Virus record (IMG/VR): IMGVR_UViG_3300025115_000004
Span: 14,045-78,044 of that record
Direction: 5' to 3' (one strand)
From: a virus
DNA: 64,000 nucleotides
Positions 2,803 to 24,471 of the stretch are shown here, one piece after another. Each line of letters opens with the position of its first letter. Positions within the stretch are counted from its first letter, which is position 1. The notes below the pieces were generated by a model. The model made no database searches, was not told the origin of the DNA, and was given only the letters and a program-made list of their open reading frames with translations. A program made the translations under genes and the position numbers.

Positions 2803-3354
2803 TTATTTTTCAAGTTTACCCATTACTCCGCGATCAATCCTCTCCTTCACCCGGGCATTAAGCCATAGCAAGGCCTCTTCCATCTTGGTAATAGCAAGTG
2901 CACCTTCTCTTGATGGAAACGCATTATTGAGCTTCTTGTGCCTGTCAATAAGGGCAATAAGCAACTGCTCACTCTGAAGACCCGGTGTCATCGATCCGTC
3001 ACTTTCCTTCTTCACAAATTGAATCCTCTGGAAAGAATTGTGATAACCGGTCTCGCCATTGTTGAACCCGGTACAGTTCTGAAAGTGATACTCATGAGCA
3101 CCGCCATACTCATCACCGCCCCTTGCTGCAATAGTGATCTTATTGCTGGGAAACACAGGGGACTGAAGTTTTGCGTCAAGAGGAAACGGCTCTCCCTCTG
3201 TCAGCAACAGCTCATGATAAGCCTCTTCGAATACCTCTTTCGGGCTCCACGACTCATACCCATCAGGGTAAATAACACGATAACCTTCGCGGCCATCTTT
3301 AACAGCAGGCTCTGCCTGAATTGTTTTTGTTCCAATGTACTTTTTCATAATCAC
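2803..3354 (-). CDS. tad1: Tad1-family anti-Thoeris/anti-CBASS nucleotide sponge with an extra N-terminal YIGTK/SWSPK domain
   Basis: C-terminal GGAHEY..IQF..PGLQSEQLLIALIDR..FPSREGALAITKMEEALLWLNARVKERIDRGVMG matches the Tad1 pattern; N-terminal KKYIGTK..GYRVIYPDGYESWSPKEVFEEAY. Confidence 0.8.
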   Translation of the reverse strand: MIMKKYIGTKTIQAEPAVKDGREGYRVIYPDGYESWSPKEVFEEAYHELLLTEGEPFPLDAKLQSPVFPSNKITIAARGGDEYGGAHEYHFQNCTGFNNGETGYHNSFQRIQFVKKESDGSMTPGLQSEQLLIALIDRHKKLNNAFPSREGALAITKMEEALLWLNARVKERIDRGVMGKLEK

Positions 3355-3369
3355 TTAATTTTTAAATAG

Positions 3370-3729
3370 TTAAAACGGACAATCGTTATCTTGCTTTGAA
3401 GAATTGACACTATAGTTCATAATCTGGATATTATCGTAAGAATAGCCCCTAGAGGAGTCTATCCTGTCTATAGACATCCCGGTCTTATGACGAGCTTTAA
3501 GCTCCATGTAACCGGTCTCCTGACAAAACTGGGTAAACTCCTCTATAGTCAAGGTAAACTCTTTCCTACGCCTCCTAGCATTATTCCTGAGAGCATTGAA
3601 TGTATATGTGATAGGAATTCGTTCCTTGTCAATCCTAGAACGACACTTATAACAGTATTTACCTTTACTAGGAGCTCGATCATTACGACACCATTTGGTA
3701 ATACATTTCTGCTTATTCTTTTTGGTCAT
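3370..3729 (-). CDS. HNH-like (His-Me finger) endonuclease with N-terminal Zn finger
   Basis: SIDRIDSSRGYSYDNIQ..N..K motif; Cys pairs; likely start ATG 3729 rather than 3810. Confidence 0.65.
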   Translation of the reverse strand: MTKKNKQKCITKWCRNDRAPSKGKYCYKCRSRIDKERIPITYTFNALRNNARRRRKEFTLTIEEFTQFCQETGYMELKARHKTGMSIDRIDSSRGYSYDNIQIMNYSVNSSKQDNDCPF

Positions 3730-3830
3730 GTCAGAAATTATCCTTACATTTGCCACGGTTAGGTTCATCAAATCCATCTGTTCGCGCTGGTAACGAGGAG
3801 GGGGCTTCAAAGCCCCCTCTGAGTTTTTAC

Positions 3831-4517
3831 TTACTTCTTCTTACTCTTTTTCGGAGTTTTCTCTACCGGAGGTACTTCATCTACCAGAGGAGCCTGACTA
3901 GCGGACGCATCAGCTATAGGGTCTTCAGCAGGGGCCATTCCTACCTGAGGAGCCTCAGAGCCCTCTGTTGCAGGAGCTCCCTGAGCAGCACCCTCAATTA
4001 CTGTACCATTGGGAGGTACAGGTTCCCCACCATTAAGAGCTTCAGCAACCCTGACAGCTTCATCCAGATCGGTTTCAGGAGACTCACCAAGTTCTGATGC
4101 TGCAGGCTCTTTCGAAGCTATTAACCCCCATACTGCATTATCTGTATCCAGAGTAACTCCCACACAACCCGTGAACCACACCGCAAACCTTTTACGACCC
4201 TCTTCAGAGAGCTGGATAGCTGAGGTTATGAAAGGAGAAGTCTTGTGCTTCCAGCTGAACTGCTGATCATATTTCCATCCCTGTTCAAGATGTGTGGGAA
4301 GATAGATCGCATCGTATAGATGACCCAAGCTATTACTAATCGTATCTGAAAATATTAGCTTGTCAGTTAATTCCAAAAGAGCTTTTTGCTCATCGAATGA
4401 GAGGTCCTCCCATACAGGGAGTTTGAAGTTGTTACCCATGATGTCGTCATACTTACATAGAGTCTCATGAGCCATGATGGTAGCTATCTGTACCATTGAA
4501 ATCAGATCCTTTTTCAT
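3831..4517 (-). CDS. Divergent RyR-domain protein with acidic/Pro-Ala tail
   Basis: IA..AHE..Y....P.WE.L...Q, GWKY, KT(S)P and QLSEE resemble phage RyR-domain proteins. Confidence 0.55.
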   Translation of the reverse strand: MKKDLISMVQIATIMAHETLCKYDDIMGNNFKLPVWEDLSFDEQKALLELTDKLIFSDTISNSLGHLYDAIYLPTHLEQGWKYDQQFSWKHKTSPFITSAIQLSEEGRKRFAVWFTGCVGVTLDTDNAVWGLIASKEPAASELGESPETDLDEAVRVAEALNGGEPVPPNGTVIEGAAQGAPATEGSEAPQVGMAPAEDPIADASASQAPLVDEVPPVEKTPKKSKKK

Positions 4518-4546
4518 TTTTACAGTTTTTATGATGAGTGAATAGA

Positions 4547-5239
4547 TTACTCTACAGGGGTTTCTGTAGGCATCTCAGGAGTTGTCTCTACAGGTACTTT
4601 GATATCCTTTATTCCGGGAAGCTCCTCTCTCTTAAGCCTGTCATCTTCCTTCTCCAGCCATTTCATGGCTAGTAGTACATGAGTCATGGCAGAGTGATTA
4701 AGAGCATCGAACACATCTTTCTCCGAATAAACAGGATCACCTGCAGCAGAATTGAAGTAGTCATGTACAAATGACTCTAACTCGTAGTAAAGCTGAAGGA
4801 TCTGATCTTTGTATCCATTCTGATGAAAATACTTGGCCTTGATAACCTTAAACTTGGGAACAGTTTTATCCGGCATAGCTGAAGACAGGTCATCTATATA
4901 CTCCATAATCAGTAGAGCCTTCTCAAGCTCTCCTATGGATGAAGAGATATACAGACTATGTTTGGTAACATCCAAATAGTCTAATTCTCTTTGGAGTGTT
5001 AAGAAAGTCTCATGAAAGGTTTGTGCATTTCTGTACAGATTTCCTTTCTCCGGATTACTGAGAGTAGCCATGAAAGCTTTATCATGATACTGTTTATTGT
5101 AGTCACCCAGTTTACTGGAGACAATCTTCAGATTGGAGGTATGTACCTCAATAGCTTCCGAGTTAATGTTCACTGATTTCAAGAATGGAAGAATCATTCC
5201 TACAGTGCTCTTTCTGATTAAGAAGTTTTTTACGTTCAT
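4547..5239 (-). CDS. Hypothetical protein
   Basis: 230-aa ORF, first gene after promoter 5260-5291. Confidence 0.75.
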   Translation of the reverse strand: MNVKNFLIRKSTVGMILPFLKSVNINSEAIEVHTSNLKIVSSKLGDYNKQYHDKAFMATLSNPEKGNLYRNAQTFHETFLTLQRELDYLDVTKHSLYISSSIGELEKALLIMEYIDDLSSAMPDKTVPKFKVIKAKYFHQNGYKDQILQLYYELESFVHDYFNSAAGDPVYSEKDVFDALNHSAMTHVLLAMKWLEKEDDRLKREELPGIKDIKVPVETTPEMPTETPVE

Positions 5240-5259
5240 ATATTCATTATATTTTTATG

Positions 5260-5291
5260 CAAATGTAAATTGAATATTTTGATATTCCAAA
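5260..5291 (-). promoter_or_regulatory. Bacteroidota promoter (TTTG ... TACATTTG) for the leftward operon
   Basis: Consensus match. Confidence 0.7.
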
Positions 5292-5357
5292 TGTTTTTTC
5301 TTTTCTCTTTCACTAATTCTATAGGATGAGTTATATTATAGTTTACATATATAAGTT

Positions 5358-5417
5358 ATAAAATACTTTAGTATTTTATTCCTTATAGGCGCGCGCGTAA
5401 GCGCGTACACGCGCGCG
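5358..5417. repeat. Two inverted repeats: ATAAAATACT-TT-AGTATTTTAT and CGCGCGCGT-N10-ACGCGCGCG
   Basis: Read directly at 5358-5379 and 5390-5417. Confidence 0.8.
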
Positions 5418-5486
5418 ATTATATATTGTATATTGGGTAGTAGCGTCCCTTGGGCCATTGGTCGTCAGGGTTGGAATTTTCCCGAA

Positions 5487-5750
5487 ACATAAGCGGAACG
5501 CTTACATAACATAAGCGAAACGCTTATGTTACATTTATACTGATAATCAATTACTTACTATTTTCATTATGTCGATGTAAGCTAAACGCTTACATAATGT
5601 AAGCGAAACGCTTATGTACATAAGCTAAACGCTTACATTGACATAAGCGAAACGCTTATGTTCCATATGTATTGATAATCAATCAATTATATGTAACAAA
5701 ATAAAAATGTAAGCGAATCGCTTACATTTACATAAGCGAATCGCTTATGT
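5487..5750. repeat. Array of eight 21-bp palindromes (A(CA/TG)TAAGCG-N3-CGCTTA(TG/CA)T) with two IHF-consensus sites
   Basis: Units start at 5487, 5509, 5575, 5597, 5618, 5641, 5707, 5730; WATCAANNNNTTR at 5545-5557 and 5677-5689. Confidence 0.92.
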
Positions 5751-5764
5751 AATGAAATTTGTAT

Positions 5765-5772
5765 TATATTTG
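5765..5772 (+). promoter_or_regulatory. -7 promoter element TATATTTG of the RHH/terminase operon
   Basis: TAnnTTTG 18 nt upstream of ATG 5791; its -33 region lies under palindrome 8. Confidence 0.65.
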
Positions 5773-5790
5773 TCCCGTAAAACTTATGTT

Positions 5791-6126
5791 ATGAAGAAGA
5801 GTGTTACTTTTTATCTGGAGCAGGAGATCTTAGACGAACTCCTTATTATCGCCATCCAAAGAGGTACTACTCCCTCACAGGTTATCAGGGAGGCTGTAAG
5901 AACTATGGTGAAGTCTCAGACCAAACCTGATCCGATTGTATCCCTCAAATCTGATCCTATCTCCATACCGGGATCGGTGTTGACCGAGGGGGATATGTAC
6001 AAACATCGCCAATTCTTCAAGGAGAAGGGTATCAACATAGCTGATGTCCTCAGGGCTCACAGAAGTAAATCTCGTGGTAGGCCTTACGACACTTCTATGG
6101 AACCTTACTTCATTTATCTGACATGA
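5791..6126 (+). CDS. Ribbon-helix-helix (CopG/Arc-like) DNA-binding protein
   Basis: KKSVTFYLEQEILDELLIIAIQRGTTPSQVIREAV is an RHH pattern; start moved to ATG 5791, downstream of the promoter. Confidence 0.75.
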   Translation: MKKSVTFYLEQEILDELLIIAIQRGTTPSQVIREAVRTMVKSQTKPDPIVSLKSDPISIPGSVLTEGDMYKHRQFFKEKGINIADVLRAHRSKSRGRPYDTSMEPYFIYLT

Positions 6127-6413
6127 GTAAAAATAGTCAGGGGCGTAAGACCGGTCTAGATGCCGAGAAAGGCATGCTTGATGATTTGAACGTTATAGTC
6201 GATTTTGTTGTGGGTAATCAAAAATCAGAAGCTGTTGACATCAACAGTGAGACTCTAGCAGAGGCCTTAGCTTTTCTGGAGATTTACCCAAAGAACTGGG
6301 AGGCTCAGGCCGCTGCTATGAGGCAATTAAGGGTGTTAGATAAGATGGTAAAGGATCTGATTGAGAAGGTTAGAATACTGCAGAAACGACAAGAATTGCG
6401 TATAAAGAAATAA
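6123..6413 (+). CDS. Hypothetical coiled-coil protein
   Basis: 96 aa, ATGA overlap with the RHH gene. Confidence 0.65.
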   Translation: MSKNSQGRKTGLDAEKGMLDDLNVIVDFVVGNQKSEAVDINSETLAEALAFLEIYPKNWEAQAAAMRQLRVLDKMVKDLIEKVRILQKRQELRIKK

Positions 6414-6429
6414 TGATTACCTTTGCGTT

Positions 6430-7068
6430 ATGGATAAGGATTGTGTTATAGTACAAATCAATAAGGACCTTCTTACAATAGGTCCGGGTCCTGTGGCTTT
6501 TCCTCCTGAGGTCTTTGTTGAGGATACAACTGTAAGCGAATTTGGTGATCTGCCTAAGGGTGTGTATAAGTATAATGTCACCTCAGTGGGTGTTAATGGA
6601 GAGAGCTCTTCTTGTCAAGATATTATTGTTTACGCGCGATACGAGGATAATGCTATTGTCCTCCGATGGAAACCTATCCCATTTATTAATGAGTACAGAG
6701 TTTACAGATCAAGTCAGGAAGGTCCTGATGGTTATTTTACTGTCTTCTCTATGGATGGTTATTTCTGTGATGATGGAAGAGGGGTGCTGAATCAGGCCTC
6801 TATGTTGCCTCCTGCGCGAACCAAGGAGGTAAATTATCCCAGAAGTATCCACCGAGCAGCAGTTAAAGGGATTACCTCAGAGTATTTAGGGGGTATGGAT
6901 ATGGGACCTAATATGGCCTATGTCTATATCGAATTACATTCTGGGGAGATTATCTCTATTAACATAGGTAAGGTAGTGAATCAACCATGGATATCTACTT
7001 ACCAAGGTCTGTTGAGAGCTGTCAGAACTTTAGAAAAGTGGGTTGATGGCAACTACGAAGGCGCGTGA
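6430..7068 (+). CDS. Protein with FN3/Ig-like domain
   Basis: LPKGVYKYNVTSV..NGES...LRW......YRVYR...F.DDG pattern; TACCTTTG at 6418-6425. Confidence 0.6.
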   Translation: MDKDCVIVQINKDLLTIGPGPVAFPPEVFVEDTTVSEFGDLPKGVYKYNVTSVGVNGESSSCQDIIVYARYEDNAIVLRWKPIPFINEYRVYRSSQEGPDGYFTVFSMDGYFCDDGRGVLNQASMLPPARTKEVNYPRSIHRAAVKGITSEYLGGMDMGPNMAYVYIELHSGEIISINIGKVVNQPWISTYQGLLRAVRTLEKWVDGNYEGA

Positions 7069-9337
7069 GAAGTATTTAAACTATCTCTACAAACAATATC
7101 AGAAAGGCCTGATAGGGCAGGATAAGCTTGAAGAGCTTAGACGGGAGGGTTATATCAAAGATGATGAACCTAAGGATGATCCAATCTCTCCAGAATTAAA
7201 ACGAAGGGTACGTGAATTATCTTGGGACCAGTCCATGGACCCATTCTTGTCTTATGATACTACACATTTCAAGTATAAACAGGAGATACGTAAAGATGAT
7301 TGGTTGCCTGTAAGTGTTACCAGTCATGAGCAAGATTTTATAGACTGGATCAATTCTATGACTTATGGCTTCTTTCCTCACAGGATAGACTATAAGAAGT
7401 TCATTATGTATAAGGTTCAGGCTTATAGATGGTTACTGGATGATGACAACATAACAAGTTATCATACTGACGAGAGCCGCAGGGACTTTGTAAAGAGAGA
7501 GTATGACCGGTGTGCAGAGAATAGTCTTTATTTTGTGGATCGTTATGGGGAACTGAAAGAAGGTGATATCTCTTCAGGGTATGTGAAATATACGGCCAGA
7601 GAGCATCATGCTGTTATCTGTTATCTGTTTGATTGTGGTTACAATGTGATAGGTGGTAAAGGGAGGCAGATAGGATTTACTTCTATTATGGGGTTGTTGG
7701 CTGTTAAAAAGTTGATATTCCAATCCAATTACTATATAAAGTTTGTGACAGAGGATAAAGAGACTGGTATAGAGATATTTACAGATAAGATTAAGTACCC
7801 ATTCGGAGCTCTCCCCAGATGGATGCGCCCCAAGGTTAAGAGTGATAGTGGTACCCGGTTCTGGCTTTCTGACAAGATTCGTAAGGGGGAGAAAGGTTAC
7901 CCCAATTCAAGGATTGATGTTATAGCCCCTAAGAATACTGCAATAAACGGAGGATCTCCTCAGCTGGTTCTTATAGACGAGATTGGTAACATAGGTATTC
8001 TTGGAGCTATGCTAAATGAAGGCCGTCCTACCATGTTTTGGAATAACCCTAAGACAGGTAAATTTGAGTTGAAGCGTCAGGTATGGATGTGGGGAACTGG
8101 AGGTAAGATGGAGAAAGGTGGGGGAGAGTATGAGAAAGAGTGGTACAGGATCTTAGGTTTGTGGGAAGCTAAGTCTAACCATAGTGGTTTTGTTCCTCTG
8201 TTCTTTAGTTGGCATTGTCGATTTGATGTTACAGAGTATGAGAAGGAGAAATCATGGTATTATGGAGCACGAGCTCAGAAAGAAGATATAGATCTAGAGA
8301 CATCCAAGACACAATTTCACCAGCACTACCCATCTACATTTAATGATATGTTCCTTAAGACTGCCAGTACTTTGGTATCTCGGGAAATCATTGAAAGCGG
8401 TATAGACAGGTGTAGGAAGGTACCTGCCGATCTTCGTCCTGTATATGGCTACTTTGAGCCTGTATTTGATGAGAGTGATCCAATGCCTCCGGAGAGCGAT
8501 GTACCTTACAGGATAATAGGTGCTAGGTTTGTGCCTGTATCTGATGAGGATATTAAGAAAGCCTCTGTTATCATATTTCAGCGTCCGGAACCCGGATGGC
8601 GACACAGATATTGGAAAGGTAGTGACCCAATAGCTACAGAGACAGGGCATTCTAAGTTTGCTTCAGTAATCTGGGATGATCTATACAAGACTATATCGGC
8701 TCTAGTCTTTTACCGCGTACAGCATGATCATAAGTATACTTTTCTACAGGTACTATTGTTGGGGCTGTATTATGGTATGTCTTCTGACGGATCTGTGGAT
8801 ATAAAGGAGTTGGTAGAGGCAAACATCGGTACCAACTATATAGACTACACGGAGACCAAAGGATATTTTCATACTCTCGTTTTCAACTCTCAACTTCCTA
8901 CTAAGGTTGCGGGAGGTACCCGGCTTATAGGTATTGACAACAAGGGTACGAGGGCTGATGCTATTATCGATTACATGACGGAGGTGATAAGAGCTTACCA
9001 TGATAGGTTTTATATATCTCTGATATTCGAACAGTTACATACTTTTGTACAGAAGAAGACAACTTCTGGTAAGGAGGTATGGGGGGTGGTCAATAAGACC
9101 ATGCACTATGATGACGTGTTGTACGCCTTGGTTTATGCATACATATGCCGGTTATCTCACATGCATCTTTCTCCAACAAGGGAGGTGGCTTCTACCACGA
9201 GGTTTAAGGTTAGATATAAATTAGTTAGGAACGCTGCCAATGAGGTAGTAAGAGTTCCTGTCAAAGTACCTATATATGAGACTGTTACAGGTGCATCGCC
9301 ATTAAATATTGATATATATGAAAATACGTCTGTTTGA
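7046..9337 (+). CDS. terL: Terminase large subunit
   Basis: Walker A GKGRQIGFTS, Walker B LVLIDE, nuclease GSDP and HYDD; position before portal. Confidence 0.92.
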   Translation: MATTKAREKYLNYLYKQYQKGLIGQDKLEELRREGYIKDDEPKDDPISPELKRRVRELSWDQSMDPFLSYDTTHFKYKQEIRKDDWLPVSVTSHEQDFIDWINSMTYGFFPHRIDYKKFIMYKVQAYRWLLDDDNITSYHTDESRRDFVKREYDRCAENSLYFVDRYGELKEGDISSGYVKYTAREHHAVICYLFDCGYNVIGGKGRQIGFTSIMGLLAVKKLIFQSNYYIKFVTEDKETGIEIFTDKIKYPFGALPRWMRPKVKSDSGTRFWLSDKIRKGEKGYPNSRIDVIAPKNTAINGGSPQLVLIDEIGNIGILGAMLNEGRPTMFWNNPKTGKFELKRQVWMWGTGGKMEKGGGEYEKEWYRILGLWEAKSNHSGFVPLFFSWHCRFDVTEYEKEKSWYYGARAQKEDIDLETSKTQFHQHYPSTFNDMFLKTASTLVSREIIESGIDRCRKVPADLRPVYGYFEPVFDESDPMPPESDVPYRIIGARFVPVSDEDIKKASVIIFQRPEPGWRHRYWKGSDPIATETGHSKFASVIWDDLYKTISALVFYRVQHDHKYTFLQVLLLGLYYGMSSDGSVDIKELVEANIGTNYIDYTETKGYFHTLVFNSQLPTKVAGGTRLIGIDNKGTRADAIIDYMTEVIRAYHDRFYISLIFEQLHTFVQKKTTSGKEVWGVVNKTMHYDDVLYALVYAYICRLSHMHLSPTREVASTTRFKVRYKLVRNAANEVVRVPVKVPIYETVTGASPLNIDIYENTSV

Positions 9338-9914
9338 TCCTACCGTGGTTGCTCCTGAGGAGTATCGTCATAAGTATCCGGAGATAGATAGAATTCCGGA
9401 ATTCAATGATTTGTCTGCTAGGGCTCTAGTTTTTATATGGTGGTATGCTAACCCTACTTCTCCTCTTGTGTTATCGATCATAGATGATTATGAGCGGGTT
9501 GAGGCTGCTATGAAGATATCAAAATTTAATCCCGGTAAGGGGGAAAAGGAAAAAATATTATCTTTGCAATTTGAGAACAATATGGCAATAGCCATAGATA
9601 AGATGTCTCAATTTGACCCCGGTATCCGCTACAAGGGATATAAAATGATAAAAACATTATTTGAGCAGTACGAGGGGATCATTGCAAAGGGTACTGACGC
9701 TTTCAAGGTTGTTGAGGGTAAAGGAGATAATCAGGTATCTTATATTGACTATAAGAAATTTGTAGATACAAGCTCTAAGGTAGTTGAGGTTATGCCAGAT
9801 CTTATTCAGAAGTTAGAGGAAGGTTTTGGGGTAATTGAAGCTAAGGATGAGGATGAGGATGATGGTTCTGGCGGTGTTCTTAGGGATTGGCACCGTAGTC
9901 GTAGTGATGAATAA
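9318..9914 (+). CDS. Terminase-adjacent hypothetical protein (possible small subunit)
   Basis: Helical ~200-aa ORF between TerL and portal; function inferred from position only. Confidence 0.6.
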   Translation: MKIRLFDPTVVAPEEYRHKYPEIDRIPEFNDLSARALVFIWWYANPTSPLVLSIIDDYERVEAAMKISKFNPGKGEKEKILSLQFENNMAIAIDKMSQFDPGIRYKGYKMIKTLFEQYEGIIAKGTDAFKVVEGKGDNQVSYIDYKKFVDTSSKVVEVMPDLIQKLEEGFGVIEAKDEDEDDGSGGVLRDWHRSRSDE

Positions 9915-9928
9915 TAAAATACTTTGAT

Positions 9929-12118
9929 ATGATACAGTTACTTACAAGCCCGGCAGAGAGACCTAATAGGATCGAGACTCCGGAAGTGTTAAAGGGTGAA
10001 GAATATCACCTGAGGTATGCTAGGTGGGCCGTATGGACTGGTTCCTCCACGAAACATTCTAAATATGTTAATGATTATGACACTAACTTGAAGTTTTATA
10101 AAGACGATCAGTGGTGTATGGATGAGGATCTGGATGCTTTCTTCAAGGATGAGGCGGGTAATGATCGTAACCGATTAAAGGTTACCCGTAATTACGTTCA
10201 ACCTATGGTGGAGCAGTATAGAGGTAACGCAGAGCGTATGACTTTTGATATGAAGGCTATCAATATATCCCCATTAGCCAAAAGCCGAAGAGATAAGGCC
10301 TTAGCCAGAGCTTTGTCTTATAATCATATAGCTAGGACTTTACCGGGTTACGAGTCTCATCTTCAGGAGAGCAATGTCCCAATAGGTAATGACACTCAGG
10401 TTACTGATGTTTTTAATAATCTATATGTCGATAATTACACCATAGCACTTAACAGAATCCTTAAGCATGGTAAGGACGTTAATAGGTTTGATGAAGCTAA
10501 ATCATTATACGCTAGGGACTTAGCCTTAGCTGGTGTAGCTATAGCTAAACCTTATCCTCATGGTGGTGAGTGGATGTTTAAGAGGGTCTCTCCAGATCGA
10601 TTCGGGTGGGATCGTAATGCTCAGGACCCCACTTTGAGGGATGCTGAATATTTCTTTGAACAGGACATTATTCCTACTCCTTCTATATTCGAACTTTATC
10701 AACATATACCTCACAATGTAAGGAAGGCTATTGAACAGCAGGCTACTTCTGTTGTAGGATCTACGGCTTCTATAGGTAATAAGTTTTTCTCTTTAGGTAG
10801 GACCCCGGTTTATACATCTGTATGGAAAGATATCATATACGAGAAGTATGGGTATGTGATGGATGAGTACGGCCAGAGGATATTGGTAAGAATCGATTAT
10901 ATTGAACCTAATCAGACTGAGCCCAAGTATAAAGAGAAGGATCTTATACCTCTAGAGAAGCTTACTGAATATCAGAAGAAAGTATTGAAAGGAGGTAATA
11001 CGGCTTATCTTTATGTAGATCATTGGAGGTATTGTACATTCATCCCGGGAGAAGTTATACCGGTTAAAGACGCTAGGGGGCGTATCATGGATGTGGCTTT
11101 GGACTATGGCGTTATTCCTTATCAGGAGCCTGATCTTTATAAGCCTACTAATATGGTGCCACCGTATAAAGTGGGGATATGGTCGTATATTGACGGAGAG
11201 GTTTTGTCTCCTGTGTCTGTGGTCATTAACCCTCAAAGGATGATAAACCGGTTTCTCTCTGTTATGGAGAATCATATAAACAATTCGGGGGGTTCTGGTG
11301 TGGTTTATGATAAGGACCTGACAGGAACCTCGCAGGAGGACGATATAAAAGCTGCTGTAAGTAGGGGCGAGGCTATAGGAGTGCATGCTAAGGGTAGGGG
11401 GGTAAACAATGTATTTGGTAGGTACGACAGTACTGTGAAGGAATCTATAGTGGCTTTTTCATCTTTGATTGAGAATTTTAAGTTAGGGATAGAACAGGTC
11501 ACTGGGGTGAATGAGGGGGTTAAAGGGGAAACCAATAATCCTGATCAGTTGGTTGGGGTTATGCAGCTTATGATTCAACGCGGATTAATCATACAGGAAC
11601 CATTCTATAAAGCTTTATCTGATCTTTATCAGGGATGTTATCAGAGCATAGCCTCTTCGGGTAGGAGGTATTATATCGATAATGAGGTAGAACTTATGGA
11701 TATAGTGGGAGAGGATATGTCTTCAGTTATAAAGTTGTCTAAGGATATGCGTAATGAATCTATGCGCGTTACGGTTGTTCGTAATATGGATAGAGACAAT
11801 GAGCGTGTGATGGTTGACAGTAATGTGATGACATGGCTTCAGTTTGGTCTTGTGGATCAGGAGCTTGCTAGTAAACTTGTTGGTCGGGCTACCATGGAAG
11901 AAGCTTTATTCCATATGAGAGACTTCCAGAAGCAACTGGCAGTACTTAAGCGTAAACAGCAGCAGGCTGCTGGGCAGGTCGCTCAACAGCAGGCTAACGC
12001 TACTGAGCAGGCTGGAAGGGTTGCCTACGGAGAAAAATTACGAGAGGAAATGAGGGAAGACTTTAATAGAGCCGCTGATAGGGGGGTACAATTAGCCTCT
12101 ACTACTTCAGCGCAATAA
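9929..12118 (+). CDS. Portal protein
   Basis: 729 aa; FY..DQW, NYVQPMVEQYRG, QRMINR, EQVTGVNE; Gln-rich C-terminal coiled coil like P22-type portals. Confidence 0.88.
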   Translation: MIQLLTSPAERPNRIETPEVLKGEEYHLRYARWAVWTGSSTKHSKYVNDYDTNLKFYKDDQWCMDEDLDAFFKDEAGNDRNRLKVTRNYVQPMVEQYRGNAERMTFDMKAINISPLAKSRRDKALARALSYNHIARTLPGYESHLQESNVPIGNDTQVTDVFNNLYVDNYTIALNRILKHGKDVNRFDEAKSLYARDLALAGVAIAKPYPHGGEWMFKRVSPDRFGWDRNAQDPTLRDAEYFFEQDIIPTPSIFELYQHIPHNVRKAIEQQATSVVGSTASIGNKFFSLGRTPVYTSVWKDIIYEKYGYVMDEYGQRILVRIDYIEPNQTEPKYKEKDLIPLEKLTEYQKKVLKGGNTAYLYVDHWRYCTFIPGEVIPVKDARGRIMDVALDYGVIPYQEPDLYKPTNMVPPYKVGIWSYIDGEVLSPVSVVINPQRMINRFLSVMENHINNSGGSGVVYDKDLTGTSQEDDIKAAVSRGEAIGVHAKGRGVNNVFGRYDSTVKESIVAFSSLIENFKLGIEQVTGVNEGVKGETNNPDQLVGVMQLMIQRGLIIQEPFYKALSDLYQGCYQSIASSGRRYYIDNEVELMDIVGEDMSSVIKLSKDMRNESMRVTVVRNMDRDNERVMVDSNVMTWLQFGLVDQELASKLVGRATMEEALFHMRDFQKQLAVLKRKQQQAAGQVAQQQANATEQAGRVAYGEKLREEMREDFNRAADRGVQLASTTSAQ

Positions 12119-13399: not shown

Positions 13400-14716
13400 A
13401 TGCCCGATCCTTTTAACACACAGAATGCATACGTAGCAGTGCCGTCACCGGTACAGCCTACGAATGTACAGAGCCCCGCGCCTTGGAATCTTAATGCCGA
13501 TGGCTCTGAGTATGCTGCAGCGTATGGTTATGATACTACTTCGCTGATTAAGAGGGCTATTGCAGAAGCCATCTATGATGCTGTTCCTGCAAAATATAAA
13601 GCCCTTAGACTTCTCTTCGACAGGCCTATAGACTATGAGGCCAGTGATGTATTCACCTACATGGAAAAGACCTTTGGTCGTACCGCTCTTCGTGACTCTG
13701 GTGGAGGTGTTGCGGGTGGAGCAACTCAGACTATAACCCTGACTACGGGGGGAGGTAAGAACGTAACCATGAACAAAATCATTGTTTACCCAAACAACCG
13801 TAAGGGTATCGTTACCGGTGTTACAGGTGATCAGATAACAGTGAAGAGGTTTAATGGTGAGTCTAACCTTCCTACAGTTAACGCGGGAGACTATTTCTCT
13901 ATTCAGGGATCGGTTATAGCTGACGGTATGAACTTCCTTACTCACTATGACAGGATGTCTAAAATTGAGCGTTTCAATTACGTTCAGCTTATGCATCGTG
14001 ATAAGAGGTGGACGAGGAAAGAAATGCAGAAGTTTGCCAACCTTGGTACCACCAATTACTTTGAACTGGATAAGAAAGAACAGATGGATCTCCTGCTCGG
14101 GGATATGTTTGCCTCTTTCTGGAACGGTCAGAGGGGTGAGGTTGATGTAACTGTTCCGGGTACAGCTAACGTGTATAAGGCCATGACTATGGGTGGGCTA
14201 TTCCCTCTTATGGTTGCTGCTGGTTGCGCTAATGCTACCGGAGTTACAGAGGCTACCTTGCAGGCTGCTTTTGAGAATCTGGCTTTCCAGACTGACTACA
14301 AGTCAGAGGGTGGTGTACGGTTCATATTTGCCCAGAACTCCTTGCTTTATGCTCTGTCAAAGGCATGGAAAGAGACAGGTATCCGTTATACTCCTAATGA
14401 TAAGATAGGTGATCTCAACCTTATGGAGTACCGTATTGGTGATATGAGGTTTGTTCCGGTTGCTACAGAACTCTTCAAGGAGCTCTCTATGTTCCCGGCC
14501 GATTTCAAGAACAGGATACTTGTTCTGGACCTCGACACTATCAAACCGGTCTGTATGAGGGGTTATGAGCCTATCGAAATGGGTCAGACTAGTCCTAAGG
14601 GTGTGAATGGTAGCATCAATGACTACACCGAGTGGTGGATTCAGGGTATGCTGTCCCTTAAATTCAACAACCCTCTCAGTTCATTCTACATTGATACCGT
14701 AGGTATTGCCGCTTAA
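13400..14716 (+). CDS. Major capsid protein (HK97 fold)
   Basis: 438 aa; NYVQL..R, F..GQRGE, TMGGL; followed by a strong terminator. Confidence 0.85.
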   Translation: MPDPFNTQNAYVAVPSPVQPTNVQSPAPWNLNADGSEYAAAYGYDTTSLIKRAIAEAIYDAVPAKYKALRLLFDRPIDYEASDVFTYMEKTFGRTALRDSGGGVAGGATQTITLTTGGGKNVTMNKIIVYPNNRKGIVTGVTGDQITVKRFNGESNLPTVNAGDYFSIQGSVIADGMNFLTHYDRMSKIERFNYVQLMHRDKRWTRKEMQKFANLGTTNYFELDKKEQMDLLLGDMFASFWNGQRGEVDVTVPGTANVYKAMTMGGLFPLMVAAGCANATGVTEATLQAAFENLAFQTDYKSEGGVRFIFAQNSLLYALSKAWKETGIRYTPNDKIGDLNLMEYRIGDMRFVPVATELFKELSMFPADFKNRILVLDLDTIKPVCMRGYEPIEMGQTSPKGVNGSINDYTEWWIQGMLSLKFNNPLSSFYIDTVGIAA

Positions 14717-19311: not shown

Positions 19312-22300
19312 ATGCGTAGTACTGAAGGACAGAAATATACAGCCTCCTTATTCTTTGGTGGTTTGGCTAGGGATATAGATCCCGAAATGTTAGATCCTAA
19401 AACAGGAGCCTTTCTTGAGGCTCATGGTATGAGGATCTCTAATATGGTTAAGAATATATTGACCAAGTTACCCGGAGATAAGGAGTTTATCACTGCTACG
19501 GCTGTAGAGGCTAACATACTCACAGGATTGGTGTGGTTAAATGGTTATGTGGTAGAGTTTTGGCATGACACCTTAACAGGTTACGGTACTATAAGGGCTA
19601 ATGGGGTTGTTGTAGCCTCTTCCTTAGATATCCCCGGGGACGACTCCCACTGGTTGGATATAGATACTAATAGTGATACCGGGGAGTTATTCATCACGGA
19701 TAACAAGCAGTGTCCTGTGGTATATGAGTTGCCGGATTTATTAGCTAATGTTGCTACCCAAAAATACTTCACTAACTACGACAGGACGTTATACGAGATT
19801 AATAAACCGGTTCAGTTGAATCAACCTATGTTCGTGTCTCTGGAGGATCTTGGAGCTGCTGGAGGTTTAAGAACAGGCAGCTATGCTTACTCCATGTGTT
19901 ACTCTACTCTTAGTGGTGAGGATACCGCGTGGAGTCCTGTGTCGCCTTATATACCTGTACCTGTGGAGAATGTTACTCAGAGGAGTCTCCCTATTAGCGG
20001 TTATTACTCAGGTCTTGAAACCTATGGCTCTGAGCCATCTTTATCTCCTACTAGGTATGGAATTAGGTTGCGTTTGCGTGTGGTCAACAAGGCTGGGTTT
20101 GATTACATTAAGCTTAGGAGGGTTGAAAACGTTACTGGACAACCTCCAAGTTATACTCCTGCAGCTCAGTTTTTGATTCTTACAGTAGATGCTGGAGGTA
20201 CACCTATTGACATTAAACAGAACCCTTTCACTATAATAGATTTTGTGGATAGCAGTGCTCAGCAGTGGGCTGCTTTAGATACTTCTATAATAAATACTTT
20301 GAGTACCGTTAAGAGGGCTAGGACAATTAGATATTACGATAGAAGGATTATTCTAGGGGGTGTGGAGTATATGCCTAAGACCTTGTCATCCGAGGATATA
20401 TTTATACAACATTCTGGTGTGGCTAAGGTACTATTTCCGGTTGTTGAGAGGTTAAATGCTGATGGTTTTGCAGATATCCAGAATCAGGTATTTAAGAAAT
20501 CACACAGGCTAGGTGAGAGGTATGGTTTTGGTCTAAAGCTTAGGGACGAACAGGGGAATGATCTATACACAATACCTTTAAAGAAGGGGGCAGAGGATTA
20601 CACAAACTATTTATTTCCTCAACGAAGAGACGCTATTCCAGCAAGTGAATTATCCTTTTCTTCGAATCCTTTGATTGATTCTACAGTAGAAAGTAACTCC
20701 GCGGGGACTAAGACACAATATTCTTATCCTATCCTTATTCATAATAGTAACTGTGTGATGACTCCTTTGAGTCAGAATTCGGTATCTTTCAGTATACCGA
20801 ATTTCAAATCTATTATGAACATACCTTCTAACGCCTCTATAAGTAGCACATTTGTAGGTAAATGTAACACATTATCAGGTATTTATGAGGCTATAGATAA
20901 TGATTACCCGTTCAGTATTGAAGGTAGTTTATTGGATAACGGTTCTTCCGTGGTATATACCTCCGGGACAGATACTTTGACTTTTACTATTATATACTCC
21001 AGCGGGGATATCTTTGACGAGAGTCCTATCCAGATTTTGTCAGGGACAGCTACTTTTCTACAGTTAATGTGCCAATATACTGTACAGTCGTCATATGACT
21101 ATGTATATGACCCAGTTACTGCTATTAGGACTGCGAAGACAGGGACTCCGTCTAGTGATGTCAACATTATCGAAGACAGTAATAACTATCCTTATAATCC
21201 TCTAACTCCCACCGGTGTCGGTGGTGGTTCTGGGGGTAGAGGCAACAATTATGAGGGGCATAGGATTGAGGTGATGGATACCATTGAGTCTACTAATAAT
21301 GTGGTAGGTAAGTATGGGGTACATAAATCTACTGTGGGGGTAAGTATAGGGGGTTTAGATCTATCTAAACTACCTGACTATGTTAAGTCTTTCAGCGTGG
21401 TAAGGACTCCTCCTGCTGGGCGTGTGGTGTGTCAGGGTATAGGTATGTACGCTTTGGTCCCTCAGAATTATGGGGATACTTCTCCCGGGCTTGTTAAACA
21501 TTTAAACAGGTTGTGGTTTTATTCTCCTGAGCTTGATCAGGTAATAGGGGATAAGGCTCATCTATTCGATGATATTGCTAATAATCCGAGTAACTATCAA
21601 ATTCAATTAGTGTCCCCTTGCGGCTTTTTCACTGATGTCTATTCTTCGGAATATATACTACCACCAATACCATCACCTCCTATAGATAGATACACCCACA
21701 TGGATATGGTTTCTATGCCTATATCTGGGGCTGACACTAATGTGGCTGATATGAGTCCTATGGATAGCTCTGATCAGATAGGGGTAGCTGGTAGGATCAC
21801 TTTCGGTAAATGGAGGAATCAATCAAATCAAGGTAGCGGGATTACTTCTAGTACAGATAAATACATATACGATATAACAAGTGCATCTACTGCTATACAT
21901 GGTAAGTTCAGGTTACCTTACTTAGAACTAGCTCTTGGGGCTAATATCTATTATACCGCTAACGTTGGTACGGTGGCAGGTACTAATTCTGGGGCGAGAG
22001 ACTTTCATGAGCCTTGGTATATTGTGAACATCATACAGACAGGTAAGAATATTATTTCCGGGAATATAGACACTTACAATGAGATAGGTCATAATATACA
22101 TATAAGCAGTGTGTTGGGAGTAAGTAACGGACTGTTTTCACAATCCTTTGAACTGCTCGAGGAACGTCCTGAAGATGTGACAGGTCTAGGTACCTCTGCT
22201 TCACAATATAGGTACATCTATGTGGACGGGGAGCCTTGGCTTAGCGGTAATAATATACCTGTAGGGAACATCAACACATATAGAGCTGATCTTTTGAATA

Positions 22301-24069
22301 ATGGATCGTTCACTCCTTCAGGTGGTTTGACCTGTTATGGTTTATATCAAGTTACGGGTCGAACTATAACTTTTCCTTACCTAATGCCCGGATCAGGTAC
22401 GCCTATTGTACCGGTAATCGGTACAGAGATTGTTGTCAGATATAATCCTAATTCTCCTATTAAGGTTTTCTTAGGGGATACTGTGGTGGGGGAGGCTTCT
22501 TTCCTTGCTGTTGATGGTGAAGGTGGAGGTAAGGGAGTGTCTAATTATACTACACACTTTAGGATGGCCGCTCCTATGCCTCAATTAAACTTTACCTTGC
22601 ATGCCAATTATCGTCAGCCTTATGATCCGGCTAATACTCTGGGAGGTACTTTAAAGGCTATAGAGACAGTTACTTCCTTCCAGTTGGGGTGGATAAGACA
22701 ATGGTTGGTTATGTTCACCTGCGAAAGTACAGTGAACTTACCTATGGTGTATAAGGATATGTTCCCCAGACGTAATTATGTTATGCGTCCTAAGTTCTTT
22801 GCCGCTAAATTAGACTCTGAATCGATCAATGATTACCTTGAAAGACATCTCACTTACCTTGATTATAATGTAGACTATCCTGATGAGATATATAATTGGG
22901 CCTACGGAGGGTTTCATACCCCTTCTGGATCTAATTTTGATTACCAGAAGAATCTTCCTTATAAAGGGTTCACAAAGCCTAAGATAGGTTCTATAGATCT
23001 GTTGAGTATGATGAAGAGGCTCCATTGGTCTACTGAGACGAGAGTGGGTTTCAGATTTAGCAGGGTATTTATTCCTTTGAATGTCTATGACCTCCGTAAT
23101 GATAAAGCCTCTCAGATAAGTATTTTATATGACGAATTCTCGGAGAAGGGGTCGAATCTTTATGTGATTACTGATAGGGGTGTTGGTATGCTTCTAGTGG
23201 GTAAGAAGATGCTATCTGATGCTGGTGGTAACGCTTTAACTATCAGAGCTTCTGATGCTACCTTTATCGGTGGAGAGGTATGGTTAAGTAATGGTATTAG
23301 TTGCCCGGACGATTATTGGAGAGGTAAGTCAGAGGGGATTATCAAAGCCCCTAATAATATTAAGATGCCTGTACTGATCTTCCCCACAACTAGGGAGATT
23401 ATCATGTTGACTAACAATACCTTCATGGATATCTCAACAAATAATCGACAGGTTATCTCGGACGCTCTGAAGGGTATAGGTAGCAACAACATGTTTAGTG
23501 TTATTGACGAAGAGTTAAATGCTATGCATATACACCTAAATGGTTATATGTATAGTTTTAATATGGATATCAATAATTGGGATTTCTCTTTACATAATCC
23601 TTTATATGTGAAATCTGTATACACCCCTTATCTGAATGGTGTCAACGATAAGTCTGTGGTTGCTTCTGTGGTTGTAGATGATTTAGTGGAGGAGAGATCT
23701 GTAGTGATTTCCAGCTCATTACCTGCGAGGGTCACGTTATCTGACTCTATACCTTATGTTTCTTTCTCGGTAACTCCGGGATTAGCCTCCTCTTATGAGT
23801 TTGTTGATATATTTATAGGGGCTAGTTATAAACCGGCTAAAATTGTTCTATCCTTGGAGAGTGATTTTTCAGTGGTATCAGAAGTATTACAGGCAAAAAT
23901 TAATCAGTATGCTCCCGGGTTATGGGAGGCTAAGTTACCTAGGTTAAGTAATAGTAAGAGATTGGTTGGCAAGACTTTATATGTCTCGGTTGTTTTACCG
24001 GACGATCATGCTTTTGTCTATGATCTTAAATGGGTAAAAATAGGTTATAAAGATATCATTGGGGGTTAG
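19312..24069 (+). CDS. Tail stabilisation/muzzle-like protein
   Basis: 1585 aa, beta-rich; N-terminal F.GGL..D.DP..L.P..G.F.EA..MR typical of P22 gp10/crAss muzzle-type proteins; adjacent to IHF. Confidence 0.7.
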   Translation: MRSTEGQKYTASLFFGGLARDIDPEMLDPKTGAFLEAHGMRISNMVKNILTKLPGDKEFITATAVEANILTGLVWLNGYVVEFWHDTLTGYGTIRANGVVVASSLDIPGDDSHWLDIDTNSDTGELFITDNKQCPVVYELPDLLANVATQKYFTNYDRTLYEINKPVQLNQPMFVSLEDLGAAGGLRTGSYAYSMCYSTLSGEDTAWSPVSPYIPVPVENVTQRSLPISGYYSGLETYGSEPSLSPTRYGIRLRLRVVNKAGFDYIKLRRVENVTGQPPSYTPAAQFLILTVDAGGTPIDIKQNPFTIIDFVDSSAQQWAALDTSIINTLSTVKRARTIRYYDRRIILGGVEYMPKTLSSEDIFIQHSGVAKVLFPVVERLNADGFADIQNQVFKKSHRLGERYGFGLKLRDEQGNDLYTIPLKKGAEDYTNYLFPQRRDAIPASELSFSSNPLIDSTVESNSAGTKTQYSYPILIHNSNCVMTPLSQNSVSFSIPNFKSIMNIPSNASISSTFVGKCNTLSGIYEAIDNDYPFSIEGSLLDNGSSVVYTSGTDTLTFTIIYSSGDIFDESPIQILSGTATFLQLMCQYTVQSSYDYVYDPVTAIRTAKTGTPSSDVNIIEDSNNYPYNPLTPTGVGGGSGGRGNNYEGHRIEVMDTIESTNNVVGKYGVHKSTVGVSIGGLDLSKLPDYVKSFSVVRTPPAGRVVCQGIGMYALVPQNYGDTSPGLVKHLNRLWFYSPELDQVIGDKAHLFDDIANNPSNYQIQLVSPCGFFTDVYSSEYILPPIPSPPIDRYTHMDMVSMPISGADTNVADMSPMDSSDQIGVAGRITFGKWRNQSNQGSGITSSTDKYIYDITSASTAIHGKFRLPYLELALGANIYYTANVGTVAGTNSGARDFHEPWYIVNIIQTGKNIISGNIDTYNEIGHNIHISSVLGVSNGLFSQSFELLEERPEDVTGLGTSASQYRYIYVDGEPWLSGNNIPVGNINTYRADLLNNGSFTPSGGLTCYGLYQVTGRTITFPYLMPGSGTPIVPVIGTEIVVRYNPNSPIKVFLGDTVVGEASFLAVDGEGGGKGVSNYTTHFRMAAPMPQLNFTLHANYRQPYDPANTLGGTLKAIETVTSFQLGWIRQWLVMFTCESTVNLPMVYKDMFPRRNYVMRPKFFAAKLDSESINDYLERHLTYLDYNVDYPDEIYNWAYGGFHTPSGSNFDYQKNLPYKGFTKPKIGSIDLLSMMKRLHWSTETRVGFRFSRVFIPLNVYDLRNDKASQISILYDEFSEKGSNLYVITDRGVGMLLVGKKMLSDAGGNALTIRASDATFIGGEVWLSNGISCPDDYWRGKSEGIIKAPNNIKMPVLIFPTTREIIMLTNNTFMDISTNNRQVISDALKGIGSNNMFSVIDEELNAMHIHLNGYMYSFNMDINNWDFSLHNPLYVKSVYTPYLNGVNDKSVVASVVVDDLVEERSVVISSSLPARVTLSDSIPYVSFSVTPGLASSYEFVDIFIGASYKPAKIVLSLESDFSVVSEVLQAKINQYAPGLWEAKLPRLSNSKRLVGKTLYVSVVLPDDHAFVYDLKWVKIGYKDIIGG

Positions 24070-24132: not shown

Positions 24133-24471
24133 ATGCCACGAAAATGTAAAGTGTCAAAAATCATGGGTAAGGTCGGTAAGAAAGCAGTAGTTAAGTATGT
24201 AGCAAAGGATACAGGAATTTCTCAGGAGACTGTCTCTTTTGTTTATGACAGCATTATGGATTGCATACTGAAGAGTGTGTTGGACATTAAGGCTGTTACT
24301 CTTCCGGGGATCGGCATCATATATCATAATCCTGTTAAAAGCAGGTTGTCGAATATGACCAATAGTATCGTACCTCCCCATAAGCATTTGTCCTTTAAGC
24401 CTCAGGAGGTTCTGGCTAGGACTATTCGGGTTAAGACCCGGGAATATCCGATAACATCGAAAACGAAGTAA
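24133..24471 (+). CDS. IHF/HU-like DNA-binding protein
   Basis: KKAVVKYVAKDTGISQ..V..V, VTLPGIG, VPPHKHLSFKP; promoter TAAATTTG at 24090. Confidence 0.85.
   Translation: MPRKCKVSKIMGKVGKKAVVKYVAKDTGISQETVSFVYDSIMDCILKSVLDIKAVTLPGIGIIYHNPVKSRLSNMTNSIVPPHKHLSFKPQEVLARTIRVKTREYPITSKTK

Follow-up and report, generated by a model that had tools for sequence, protein, structure and literature searches.

This work concerns a 64,000-nt window of viral DNA (positions 14045-78044 of the record IMGVR_UViG_3300025115_000004), in which eight 21-bp palindromes at 5487-5750 lie directly upstream of a gene for a small protein that joins a ribbon-helix-helix (RHH) domain to a distinct C-terminal domain, and which we named RHH-CTD. 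On balance, we hold it probable that this array is a cooperative binding site (operator) of the adjacent RHH-CTD protein and controls the promoter of the operon that the gene opens. In our best reading, the complex is a cooperative RHH-DNA filament over the operon promoter, like those of ParR/parC, omega or CopG. The virus contig behind the window is a single contig of 78,044 bp, of linear class and 94% complete, from a freshwater metagenome; we refer to its locus as W, and coordinates below are those of the window unless stated otherwise.

A sequence-only reading of this DNA had described eight palindromes and the gaps between them, and a pattern scan found both as described. The palindromes have the core TAAGC(G/T)-N3-CGCTTA (Table 1), and their start-to-start spacings are 22, 66, 22, 21, 23, 66 and 23 bp. 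Each contains two half-sites that lie 9 bp apart. TAAGCG is exact in 14 of the 16 half-sites of W (hexamer enrichment p = 2e-26), and the cores at 5578 and 5621 carry TAAGCT in one arm instead. The pattern gave 17 strand-matches in the window, with 0.62 expected, a value reached in none of 100 shuffles. Outside the array, the sole further match in the window has one mismatch, and no further copy of the palindrome was found in the full 78,044-bp genome.

The array as a whole is a tandem duplication of a 132-bp site-site-spacer-site-site unit, as had been claimed, with a total length of 243 bp. The palindrome centres fit best to a period of 11.00 bp (resultant length R = 0.96; R = 0.15 at 10.5 bp), and when sites were placed at random without overlap in a Monte Carlo test, about 1e-4 of the trials attained the 11-bp phasing value. 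The earlier description of the gaps as multiples of two helical turns had to be amended, in that 11.0 bp per repeat is measurably different from B-DNA.

Megablast of 4500-9500 against GenBank phages detected no close DNA relatives, the exact double-palindrome pattern had no match in IMG/VR, and no description of such an array element was found in the literature searched. We also considered whether the palindromes act as RNA, in the form of a hairpin array or a known RNA family. This was rejected, as Rfam gave only sub-threshold miRNA-like matches and the arrays of related phages are direct repeats that are unable to form hairpins.

For the RHH-CTD gene, the start at 5791 was preferred over 5752, in agreement with its homologues and the promoter. 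In an AlphaFold2 model built with 10 homologues, the protein consists of an RHH domain (residues 1-45, pLDDT 81-95), a disordered linker (47-66) and a C-terminal domain (66-111) of three confidently modelled helices, with the motif A-x-R...G-R-x-Y-D-x-S-[LM]-E-x-Y-F. The N-terminal domain superposes on CopG, Arc, NikR, PutA, omega, ParG and many RHH antitoxins. CopG was its best Foldseek match (probability 0.99, rmsd 1.6 Å over 43 residues, 32% identity), RHH antitoxins were among the top structural matches, and target-normalised TM values were 0.79-0.83. In VIA-align, all 50 listed entries were RHH proteins, including the RHH domain of PutA (Z 6.6, rmsd 0.8 Å over 44 residues) and omega (Z 4.8). 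A search of solved structures with the family profile retrieved AvtR, ORF56 and CopG at E = 2e-4 to 4e-3 (AvtR 2e-4), and the protein also matches PHROG repressor families. The RHH fold previously assigned to this product is thus supported by the model, by both structure comparisons and by the profile search.

No assignable family or fold was found for the C-terminal domain in sequence and structure collections. A profile search of 1.84 billion representative proteins yielded 124 matches, among which about 60-70 are full-length family members of 105-190 aa, corresponding to about 60-70 clusters at 50% identity. With the RHH protein as sole query, no relative was obtained in IMG/VR and only the protein itself in a word-indexed search of 5.8 billion proteins; further family scans of IMG/VR gave nothing or contigs already found. 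Beyond the RHH domain, no match to a described family was detected among the proteins and loci examined. The closest RHH protein, P0032, has the same KSVTF beta-strand as the W protein.

To compare this locus with others, we used relatives collected by searches with the large terminase subunit TerL (L001-L010 from IMG/VR, L014-L031 from JGI metagenomes), whose TerL is 62-76% identical to that of W. The RHH gene and its upstream DNA were available in 10 distinct loci, namely W, L002, L003, L004, L005, L008, L014, L020, L023 and L028. With small variations, nine relatives keep the same layout: a leftward 230-aa gene, an intergenic region, RHH-CTD, a gene of about 90 aa, a gene of about 110 aa, and TerL. 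An unbiased hexamer-enrichment test detected a locus-specific repeat immediately before the operon wherever a locus had enough upstream DNA (Table 1). Autocorrelation showed periods of 11 or 22 bp in L008, L014, L020 and L003. In L004, TGCA(C) was read by eye about 3 times and is not among the enriched hexamers of that locus.

The type of repeat follows the RHH domain. In L002, L003, L008 and L014, the N-terminal domains are 38-66% identical and all four loci have a GTATA core; in L004 and L028, the identity is 41% and both have TGCA(C). The N-terminal domains of W, L005, L020 and L023 are less than 30% identical to all others, and each of these loci has a motif of its own. Across the ten proteins, the mean identity is 23% in the N-terminal domain and 40% in the C-terminal domain, and that of TerL is about 70%. 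Such a pattern would be expected for a specificity module that co-evolves with its sites. The alignments therefore show that the site sequences and the RHH reading head co-diversify, with the architecture (an 11-bp register, a position directly upstream, and overlap with the promoter) being conserved. This covariation of the repeat type with the RHH domain is the strongest evidence, short of experiment, for binding of the protein to the array. Of the nucleoprotein complex of RHH protein and integration host factor (IHF) that had been envisaged, the RHH part stands in that the array most likely binds the adjacent RHH protein, whereas the IHF part is not supported, as described below. Likewise, where co-conservation in related phages had been proposed as a check, layout and array position are kept and the repeat type tracks the RHH domain, but the palindrome sequence, the IHF matches and the spacers are not conserved.

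We then considered the position of the array in the genome. Left of 5239, every gene is on the minus strand; from 5791 to 64000, every gene is on the plus strand. GC skew changes sign where the gene orientation switches (about 5,000-6,000), with the cumulative skew minimum at about 5,000. Both observations agree with the earlier statement that the array lies at a switch between leftward and rightward transcription. The skew inflection, which had also been suggested as a check, does fall at the array but is inseparable from the switch in gene orientation. The RHH gene is the first of a tight operon that reaches TerL and the portal gene. The 96-aa protein encoded next to it showed only coiled-coil or helical-hairpin resemblance, with no match to a family, a toxin or a small terminase.

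A scan for Bacteroidota-type promoters (TTTG-N18-21-TAnnTTTG) gave 9 full matches in the genome and 1.5 in shuffles, while a sigma-70 promoter scan stayed at chance level. The predicted −7 box of the operon has no TTTG −33 box, and palindrome 8 (5730-5750) overlies the −33 position of this predicted promoter, as had been noted for the promoter of the RHH gene. In L002 and L020, a TAtcTTTG box is located between repeat units. The predicted leftward promoter lies about 200 bp from palindrome 1 and is not covered by the array; its motif recurs at the equivalent place in L002, L003, L008 and L014. Since the site is unique in the genome, the RHH protein would be a local rather than a global regulator.

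Each of the two 66-bp spacers contains an exact match to the IHF consensus WATCAANNNNTTR, at the places given by the sequence-only reading, and the phage gene for an HU/IHF-family protein at 24133 was likewise found through a PF00216 match (Table 1). The proposal that IHF is a component of the array was not supported. The consensus is that of E. coli and may not apply to the HU protein of a Bacteroidota phage. It occurs 9 times in the window with 4.3 expected, an excess of about twofold, so the consensus alone is weak evidence. Moreover, both matches are the right half of a 13-bp palindrome A(C/T)TGAT-A-ATCAAT (ATTGATAATCAAT), and they are unconserved in the relatives. In five of the nine relatives, the 560 nt upstream of the RHH gene contain no IHF-consensus match; the single matches of L004 and L023 fall outside the repeat clusters, and that of L028 lies at the left edge of its repeats, without counterpart in other loci. 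None of the nine relatives has a match at the equivalent place inside the array, and two matches occur in W only. Nor is a spacer with an IHF-like match retained, the L008 array being continuous and that of L014 almost continuous apart from a single variant unit.

When the two 132-bp units are compared, the spacer half that bears the 13-bp palindrome agrees at 23 of 28 positions, the remaining half having diverged. For this reason, we consider that the 13-bp palindrome is probably bound by some factor, not necessarily IHF. The phage HU-family protein could serve as an architectural partner of the array; no link between the two was found.

Taking these features into account, we outline how the RHH-CTD protein might act as the ligand of the array. 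Each 21-bp palindrome would probably hold a dimer of RHH dimers, as do the operators of Arc and CopG. The density would be one RHH dimer per 11 bp, that is, two per palindrome in W and one per direct repeat in the relatives. Up to 16 dimers could polymerise along one face of the DNA and form a superhelical or ring-like filament, as in ParR/parC and omega/heptads. With a register of 11.0 bp on DNA of about 10.5 bp per turn, the proteins would wind once round the helix over 243 bp, or else the DNA would be untwisted or writhed. Such a geometry has been described for ParR on parC and for omega on its heptads (PMC5016525). Because the spacers are exact multiples of 11 bp (66 bp, 6 x 11 bp), they would hold blocks of 2 + 4 + 2 palindromes in register, and they may loop out or bind another factor. 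The end of the filament, lying over the position at which the operon promoter lacks a −33 box, would set the expression of its own operon, which comprises the RHH protein, two small conserved proteins, the large terminase and the portal, and would do so either by repressing through occlusion or by activating from −39/−62. The clustered C-terminal domains, which are conserved, would contact a conserved partner.

This model has parallels in plasmid systems. The parC site of plasmid R1 consists of ten 11-bp repeats. ParR has an N-terminal RHH domain and a C-terminal partner-binding part, and its 10 iterons flank its own promoter (PMC5016525). One ParR dimer binds per repeat to form a superhelical filament; the parC array may be continuous or split by a looping spacer, and in R1 parC the gap that separates two blocks and bears the promoter is looped out of the complex (PMC5016525). 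Similar to ParR/parC of R1, pSK41 and pB171, the phage system displays an N-terminal RHH domain followed by a conserved C-terminal part and an upstream array that overlaps its own promoter, and L008 and L014 also match parC in having about ten 11-bp repeats. Unlike ParR/parC, no ParM gene is adjacent and the RHH operon runs into terminase and portal, so that membership fails on the motor gene. In addition, the W repeats are palindromic pairs instead of direct repeats, the similarity is at the level of the RHH superfamily only, and the C-terminal part is a folded three-helix domain rather than a short tail.

Omega binds 7-10 heptads that overlap promoters (PMC5016525). Omega of pSM19035 and CopG of pMV158 resemble the phage protein as small RHH dimers that polymerise cooperatively on 4-10 contiguous short repeats, direct or inverted, overlapping promoters. 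However, omega recognizes 7-bp heptads at several promoters and has an N-terminal tail acting on a ParA, and CopG has 45 residues and a single 13-bp element, whereas the phage array is one site per genome with an 11-bp register and its protein has an extra C-terminal domain. RHH antitoxins (TacA, ParD, CopA-SO and MazE) share the N-terminal RHH domain with a C-terminal partner part, the first place in the operon and palindromic upstream operators. They differ in having 1-2 operators, compared with 8-12 here, and the synteny with TerL is conserved here. For the 96-aa downstream protein, no toxin family gave a match, and the helical hairpin predicted for it is a non-specific fold. The layout resembles a type II toxin-antitoxin module, yet such a module would not be expected to have an array of this size or synteny with TerL. 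By analogy, the mode of action would be closest to ParR/parC and omega/CopG, with family membership at the level of the RHH superfamily only.

Several points weigh against the operator reading. The binding of RHH-CTD to the array is suggested by sequence comparison, and only 10 loci underlie the covariation. The relatives were retrieved via TerL, so the RHH-TerL linkage is partly an effect of retrieval, and two RHH-based scans returned the same contigs only. The DNA of P0032 was not found in IMG/VR, which leaves the closest RHH protein outside the covariation set. In Pfam, RHH_1 scored just below the cut-off (18.9 bits against 20.5, E = 1.4e-3); a match to it at E <= 0.1 occurs in four of the ten family members. 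Arc, CopG and RHH antitoxins act with 2-4 dimers, and the 16 half-sites of W far exceed the needs of simple autoregulation, which points to an additional structural role. For a lytic phage, it would also be odd if the gene opening a packaging operon repressed its own expression.

Left of the array, at 5350-5475, a non-coding element differs from the variable arrays beside it in that the alignment shows it conserved among W, L002, L003, L008 and L014. It begins with an AT-rich palindrome of 18+18 nt (5350-5387), followed by an alternating G/C palindrome (5388-5418) that is the sole such run in the 78-kb genome and has, at 5398, one TAAGCG half-site. The element is completed by a TATATTGTATA-like box and a GGCCATTGGTC stretch; the counterpart of the latter in the relatives is 3 x TGAYCA (GATC-rich), degenerate in W. 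We take these TGAYCA repeats to resemble the clusters of TGATCA/G hexamers at the pac site of P1. Judged from its conservation, the element should be read by a conserved factor, and as a possible terminase, replication or polymerase site it ranks ahead of the array.

The list of functions first proposed for the array, in which packaging-initiation site, origin, centromere and early/late switch stood side by side, proved too broad: an operator or switch is favoured, and neither a genome end nor an origin could be placed here. That the array is a pac or cos site, with RHH-CTD supplying DNA recognition to the terminase (as an analogue of a small terminase or as an adaptor), strikes us as unlikely. 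The clustered C-terminal domains would then recruit TerL or the 96-aa protein, and the array could still double as an operator, as parC does. The array and the RHH gene do head the TerL/portal operon, with overlapping reading frames, and the site, which has no second copy in the genome, is far bigger than a simple operator would be. Pfam and PHROG give no small-terminase match for any of the three small proteins, and Terminase_2 is absent from the genome. A conserved C-terminal domain beside a diversifying DNA-binding domain and diversifying sites is what one would expect of an adaptor that links a conserved machine to a variable site. Lambda cosB (R sites and the IHF site I1) and SPP1 pacL both lie directly upstream of a small-terminase gene. 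The array resembles lambda cosB (gpNu1 sites R3-I1-R2-R1 with IHF) and the pac sites of SPP1 and P1 as a multi-site region upstream of the first gene of a terminase operon, with a bend site between protein sites in cosB; it differs in its RHH protein and in an IHF-like site that is unconserved in the relatives. Known small terminases have helix-turn-helix (HTH) or winged-helix domains. The one example retrieved has an HTH domain (PMC13595956). RHH-CTD has no homology to any small-terminase family, and in the literature searched no RHH small terminase is described, the two terms co-occurring only in passing. The array is internal to the contigs of W, L002, L008, L014 and L023, with no genome end placed there, and two near-complete contigs are mutually permuted, which speaks against fixed ends here but not against headful packaging. 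The neighbouring element at 5350-5475 is also the better candidate for a site read by the conserved terminase proteins. The sequencing source is one run, kept as assembled contigs, in which one 10.6-kb contig spans the array unbroken and without variant; it is uninformative on genome ends. A physical terminus hinted at by the contig ends of L004 and L005 was dropped, the L004 end being of low complexity and the contigs of L028, W, L002, L008, L014 and L023 running through the region. We regard it as similarly doubtful that the array is a ParR/parC-like 'handle' with the terminase as motor, in which an RHH filament marks the phage DNA for packaging. If true, small-terminase function would here be of a new, non-HTH type, and the diversifying specificity would prevent related co-infecting phages from packaging each other's genomes.

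The remaining alternatives appear weaker. Phage phi29 has, in the divergent region controlling its early and late genes, several sites for p4 dimers and a histone-like protein, p6. A switch of this kind, in which an RHH filament and the HU protein in the 66-bp spacers would fold the divergent region, shut the leftward early promoter and activate the rightward promoter that lacks a −33 box, seems improbable here. The array does lie between divergent gene blocks; with no −33 box on the rightward side, palindromes 7 and 8 near −62 and −39 take typical activator positions; the phage encodes an HU-family protein; and the spacer segment with the 13-bp palindrome is kept between the 132-bp units (23/28), the rest of the spacer having diverged. 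Yet the leftward promoter at 5260-5291 is about 200 bp away and outside the array, and it is covered in no relative except partly in L002; the IHF-like matches and spacers are not conserved, the E. coli consensus may not suit this HU protein, and p4 is not an RHH protein. Such a switch would in any case be a sub-case of the operator reading rather than a true alternative. A replication origin, with the palindromes as iterons comparable to the four palindromic O-binding sites of lambda ori and with unwinding at the AT- and GC-rich element to the left, is very unlikely. It would account for the strictly phased sites about 22 bp apart, for the AT-rich palindrome and unique GC-rich element 100 bp leftward, and for a cumulative skew minimum at about 5,000 from which both gene blocks point away. 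But the skew carries no independent information where it coincides with the gene-orientation switch, the array has no initiator-like gene next to it, RHH proteins are not known to act as initiators, the helicase, primase, polymerase and SSB genes are 40-48 kb away, and the arrays of the relatives overlap promoter boxes and reach a start codon, as operators do. We give equally little credence to a plasmid-type centromere (an analogue of ParR/parC or omega/ParG) serving a carrier or phage-plasmid state. Its attraction lies in the ParR/parC architecture, with an N-terminal RHH domain, a conserved C-terminal part and about ten phased repeats before the protein's own operon, but the genes after RHH do not encode ParM, ParA or TubZ motors, and no integrase or plasmid replication gene was noticed. 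PF01656 (CbiA/ParA) had no match in the 94%-complete 78-kb record, whereas all control genomes matched; a genome-wide search for StbA_N (ParM) gave no match, as was also the case in the control genomes.

The wider genome gives some indication of the phage itself. Among 50,697 GenBank phage records, TerL had no relative beyond 15% coverage; because of this, the phage looks like an undescribed lineage, one infecting freshwater Bacteroidota. Scans of GTDB genomes for the host with TerL and with the RHH family gave no match. Membership in the crAss-like phages was considered and rejected as unproven, as TerL has no GenBank phage relative, the giant proteins encoded at 19312-24069 and 26976-34019 (1585 aa and 2347 aa, respectively) have no DFDxD motif, and the capsid protein (13400-14716) is of SU10 type. 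Most structural proteins lack a PHROG match. Helicases, primase, DNA polymerase, SSB and an SbcC-like protein are encoded at 45-64 kb of the window. In the leftward block, the minus-strand 183-aa protein at 2803-3354 carries an Acb2/Tad1 hairpin domain (PF24729, 28.6 bits; cut-off 27) and is likely an anti-CBASS or anti-Thoeris nucleotide sponge of a leftward early block; the minus-strand open reading frame (ORF) at 3370-3810 (146 aa from a TTG start) matches the PHROG endonuclease VII/HNH family phrog_3322 at E = 5e-18. The last 127 nt of the contig (window 63874-64000) exactly repeat genome positions 737-863, with differing left flanks, the latter copy lying 13.2 kb before the window start. 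The exact length of 127 suggests an assembler k-mer junction at a real repeated element; the genome may be circular, about 77.2 kb long, and have a variant branch.

Within the operon, the protein at 6430-7068 varies in length, with 212 aa in W, 219 aa in L023 and about 110 aa in the other relatives; the part common to the relatives is beta-rich and has a repeated-tyrosine motif, G.YYY..T.V. TerL of L028 (2117-5572) has 1151 aa compared with about 760 elsewhere, a length suggestive of an intein or inserted domain. Mobile-looking insertions around TerL were seen in L028 (2117-5572), L004 (1763-2242), L022 (447-626) and L024 (357-1238), and extra small ORFs of the relatives, between the ~110-aa gene and TerL or upstream, have a homing-endonuclease-like look.

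Table 1. Features of locus W (window coordinates) and upstream repeats of related loci
Feature	Position	Strand	Details
Leftward promoter, Bacteroidota type (predicted)	5260-5291	−	TTTG-N20-TAcaTTTG; pattern scan; serves divergent minus-strand block
Conserved non-coding element	5350-5475		Counterparts: L002 3822-3920; L003 2415-2515; L008 3660-3765; L014 2795-2905
Palindromes 1 and 2 (21 bp each)	5487-5529		Cores start at 5490, 5512
Spacer 1, conserved part	5539-5557		Near-palindrome ACTGAT-A-ATCAAT at 5539-5551, overlapping IHF match 5545-5557
Palindromes 3-6	5575-5661		Cores start at 5578, 5600, 5621, 5644; junction of 132-bp units at ~5618
Spacer 2, conserved part	5671-5689		Perfect palindrome ATTGAT-A-ATCAAT at 5671-5683, overlapping IHF match 5677-5689
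Palindromes 7 and 8	5707-5750		Cores start at 5710, 5733; centres at ~−62 and ~−39 from predicted transcription start
Predicted −7 box, promoter of RHH-terminase operon	5765-5772	+	TAtaTTTG; pattern scan
RHH-CTD protein	5791-6126	+	111 aa
Conserved helical protein	6123-6413	+	96 aa; long C-terminal helix; start overlaps RHH stop by 4 nt
Beta-rich protein	6430-7068	+	212 aa; overlaps TerL start
Large terminase subunit TerL	7046-9337	+	Overlaps end of 212-aa gene
201-aa ORF	9309-9914	+	Between TerL and portal
Portal gene	9929-12118	+	After TerL region
HU/IHF-family DNA-binding protein	24133-24471	+	PF00216, 30.1 bits (cut-off 22.4)
L002 repeat, (A)GTATAT			8-10 copies, both orientations; p = 2e-13
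L003 repeat, TGTATTC unit			3 copies, 22 bp apart
L008 repeat, GTATA			10 copies, exactly 11 bp apart
L014 repeat, TGTATAA			9 copies, mostly 11 bp apart; p = 2e-13; variant TGTATTA fills a 22-bp gap
L020 repeat, AGGATAT			5 copies, 10-11 bp apart, extending to start codon
L023 repeat, TGTTTA / GTTTAAAC			12 hexamers; five perfect GTTTAAAC palindromes; two clusters; p = 1e-24
L028 repeat, TTGCAC			4 copies; p = 4e-7

Taken together, the kind of element described here is familiar, namely an RHH protein and an iterated operator before the late/packaging genes of a phage. New are the protein family, which combines RHH with this C-terminal domain, and its conserved location in an undescribed lineage, where it opens the terminase operon, as well as the strict 11.0-bp register across unrelated site sequences and the fast co-diversification of the sites and their reading head. 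Should the C-terminal domain engage the terminase, the system would represent a new means of self-DNA recognition in phages; otherwise, it is one more phage operator, and the annotation 'RHH regulator of packaging operon' would replace 'hypothetical protein'. With fast-evolving RHH domains and arrays, a fixed 11-bp register and a conserved C-terminal domain, these loci form a natural data set for the RHH recognition code, one that is equally suited to the study of how cooperative protein-DNA filaments are built.

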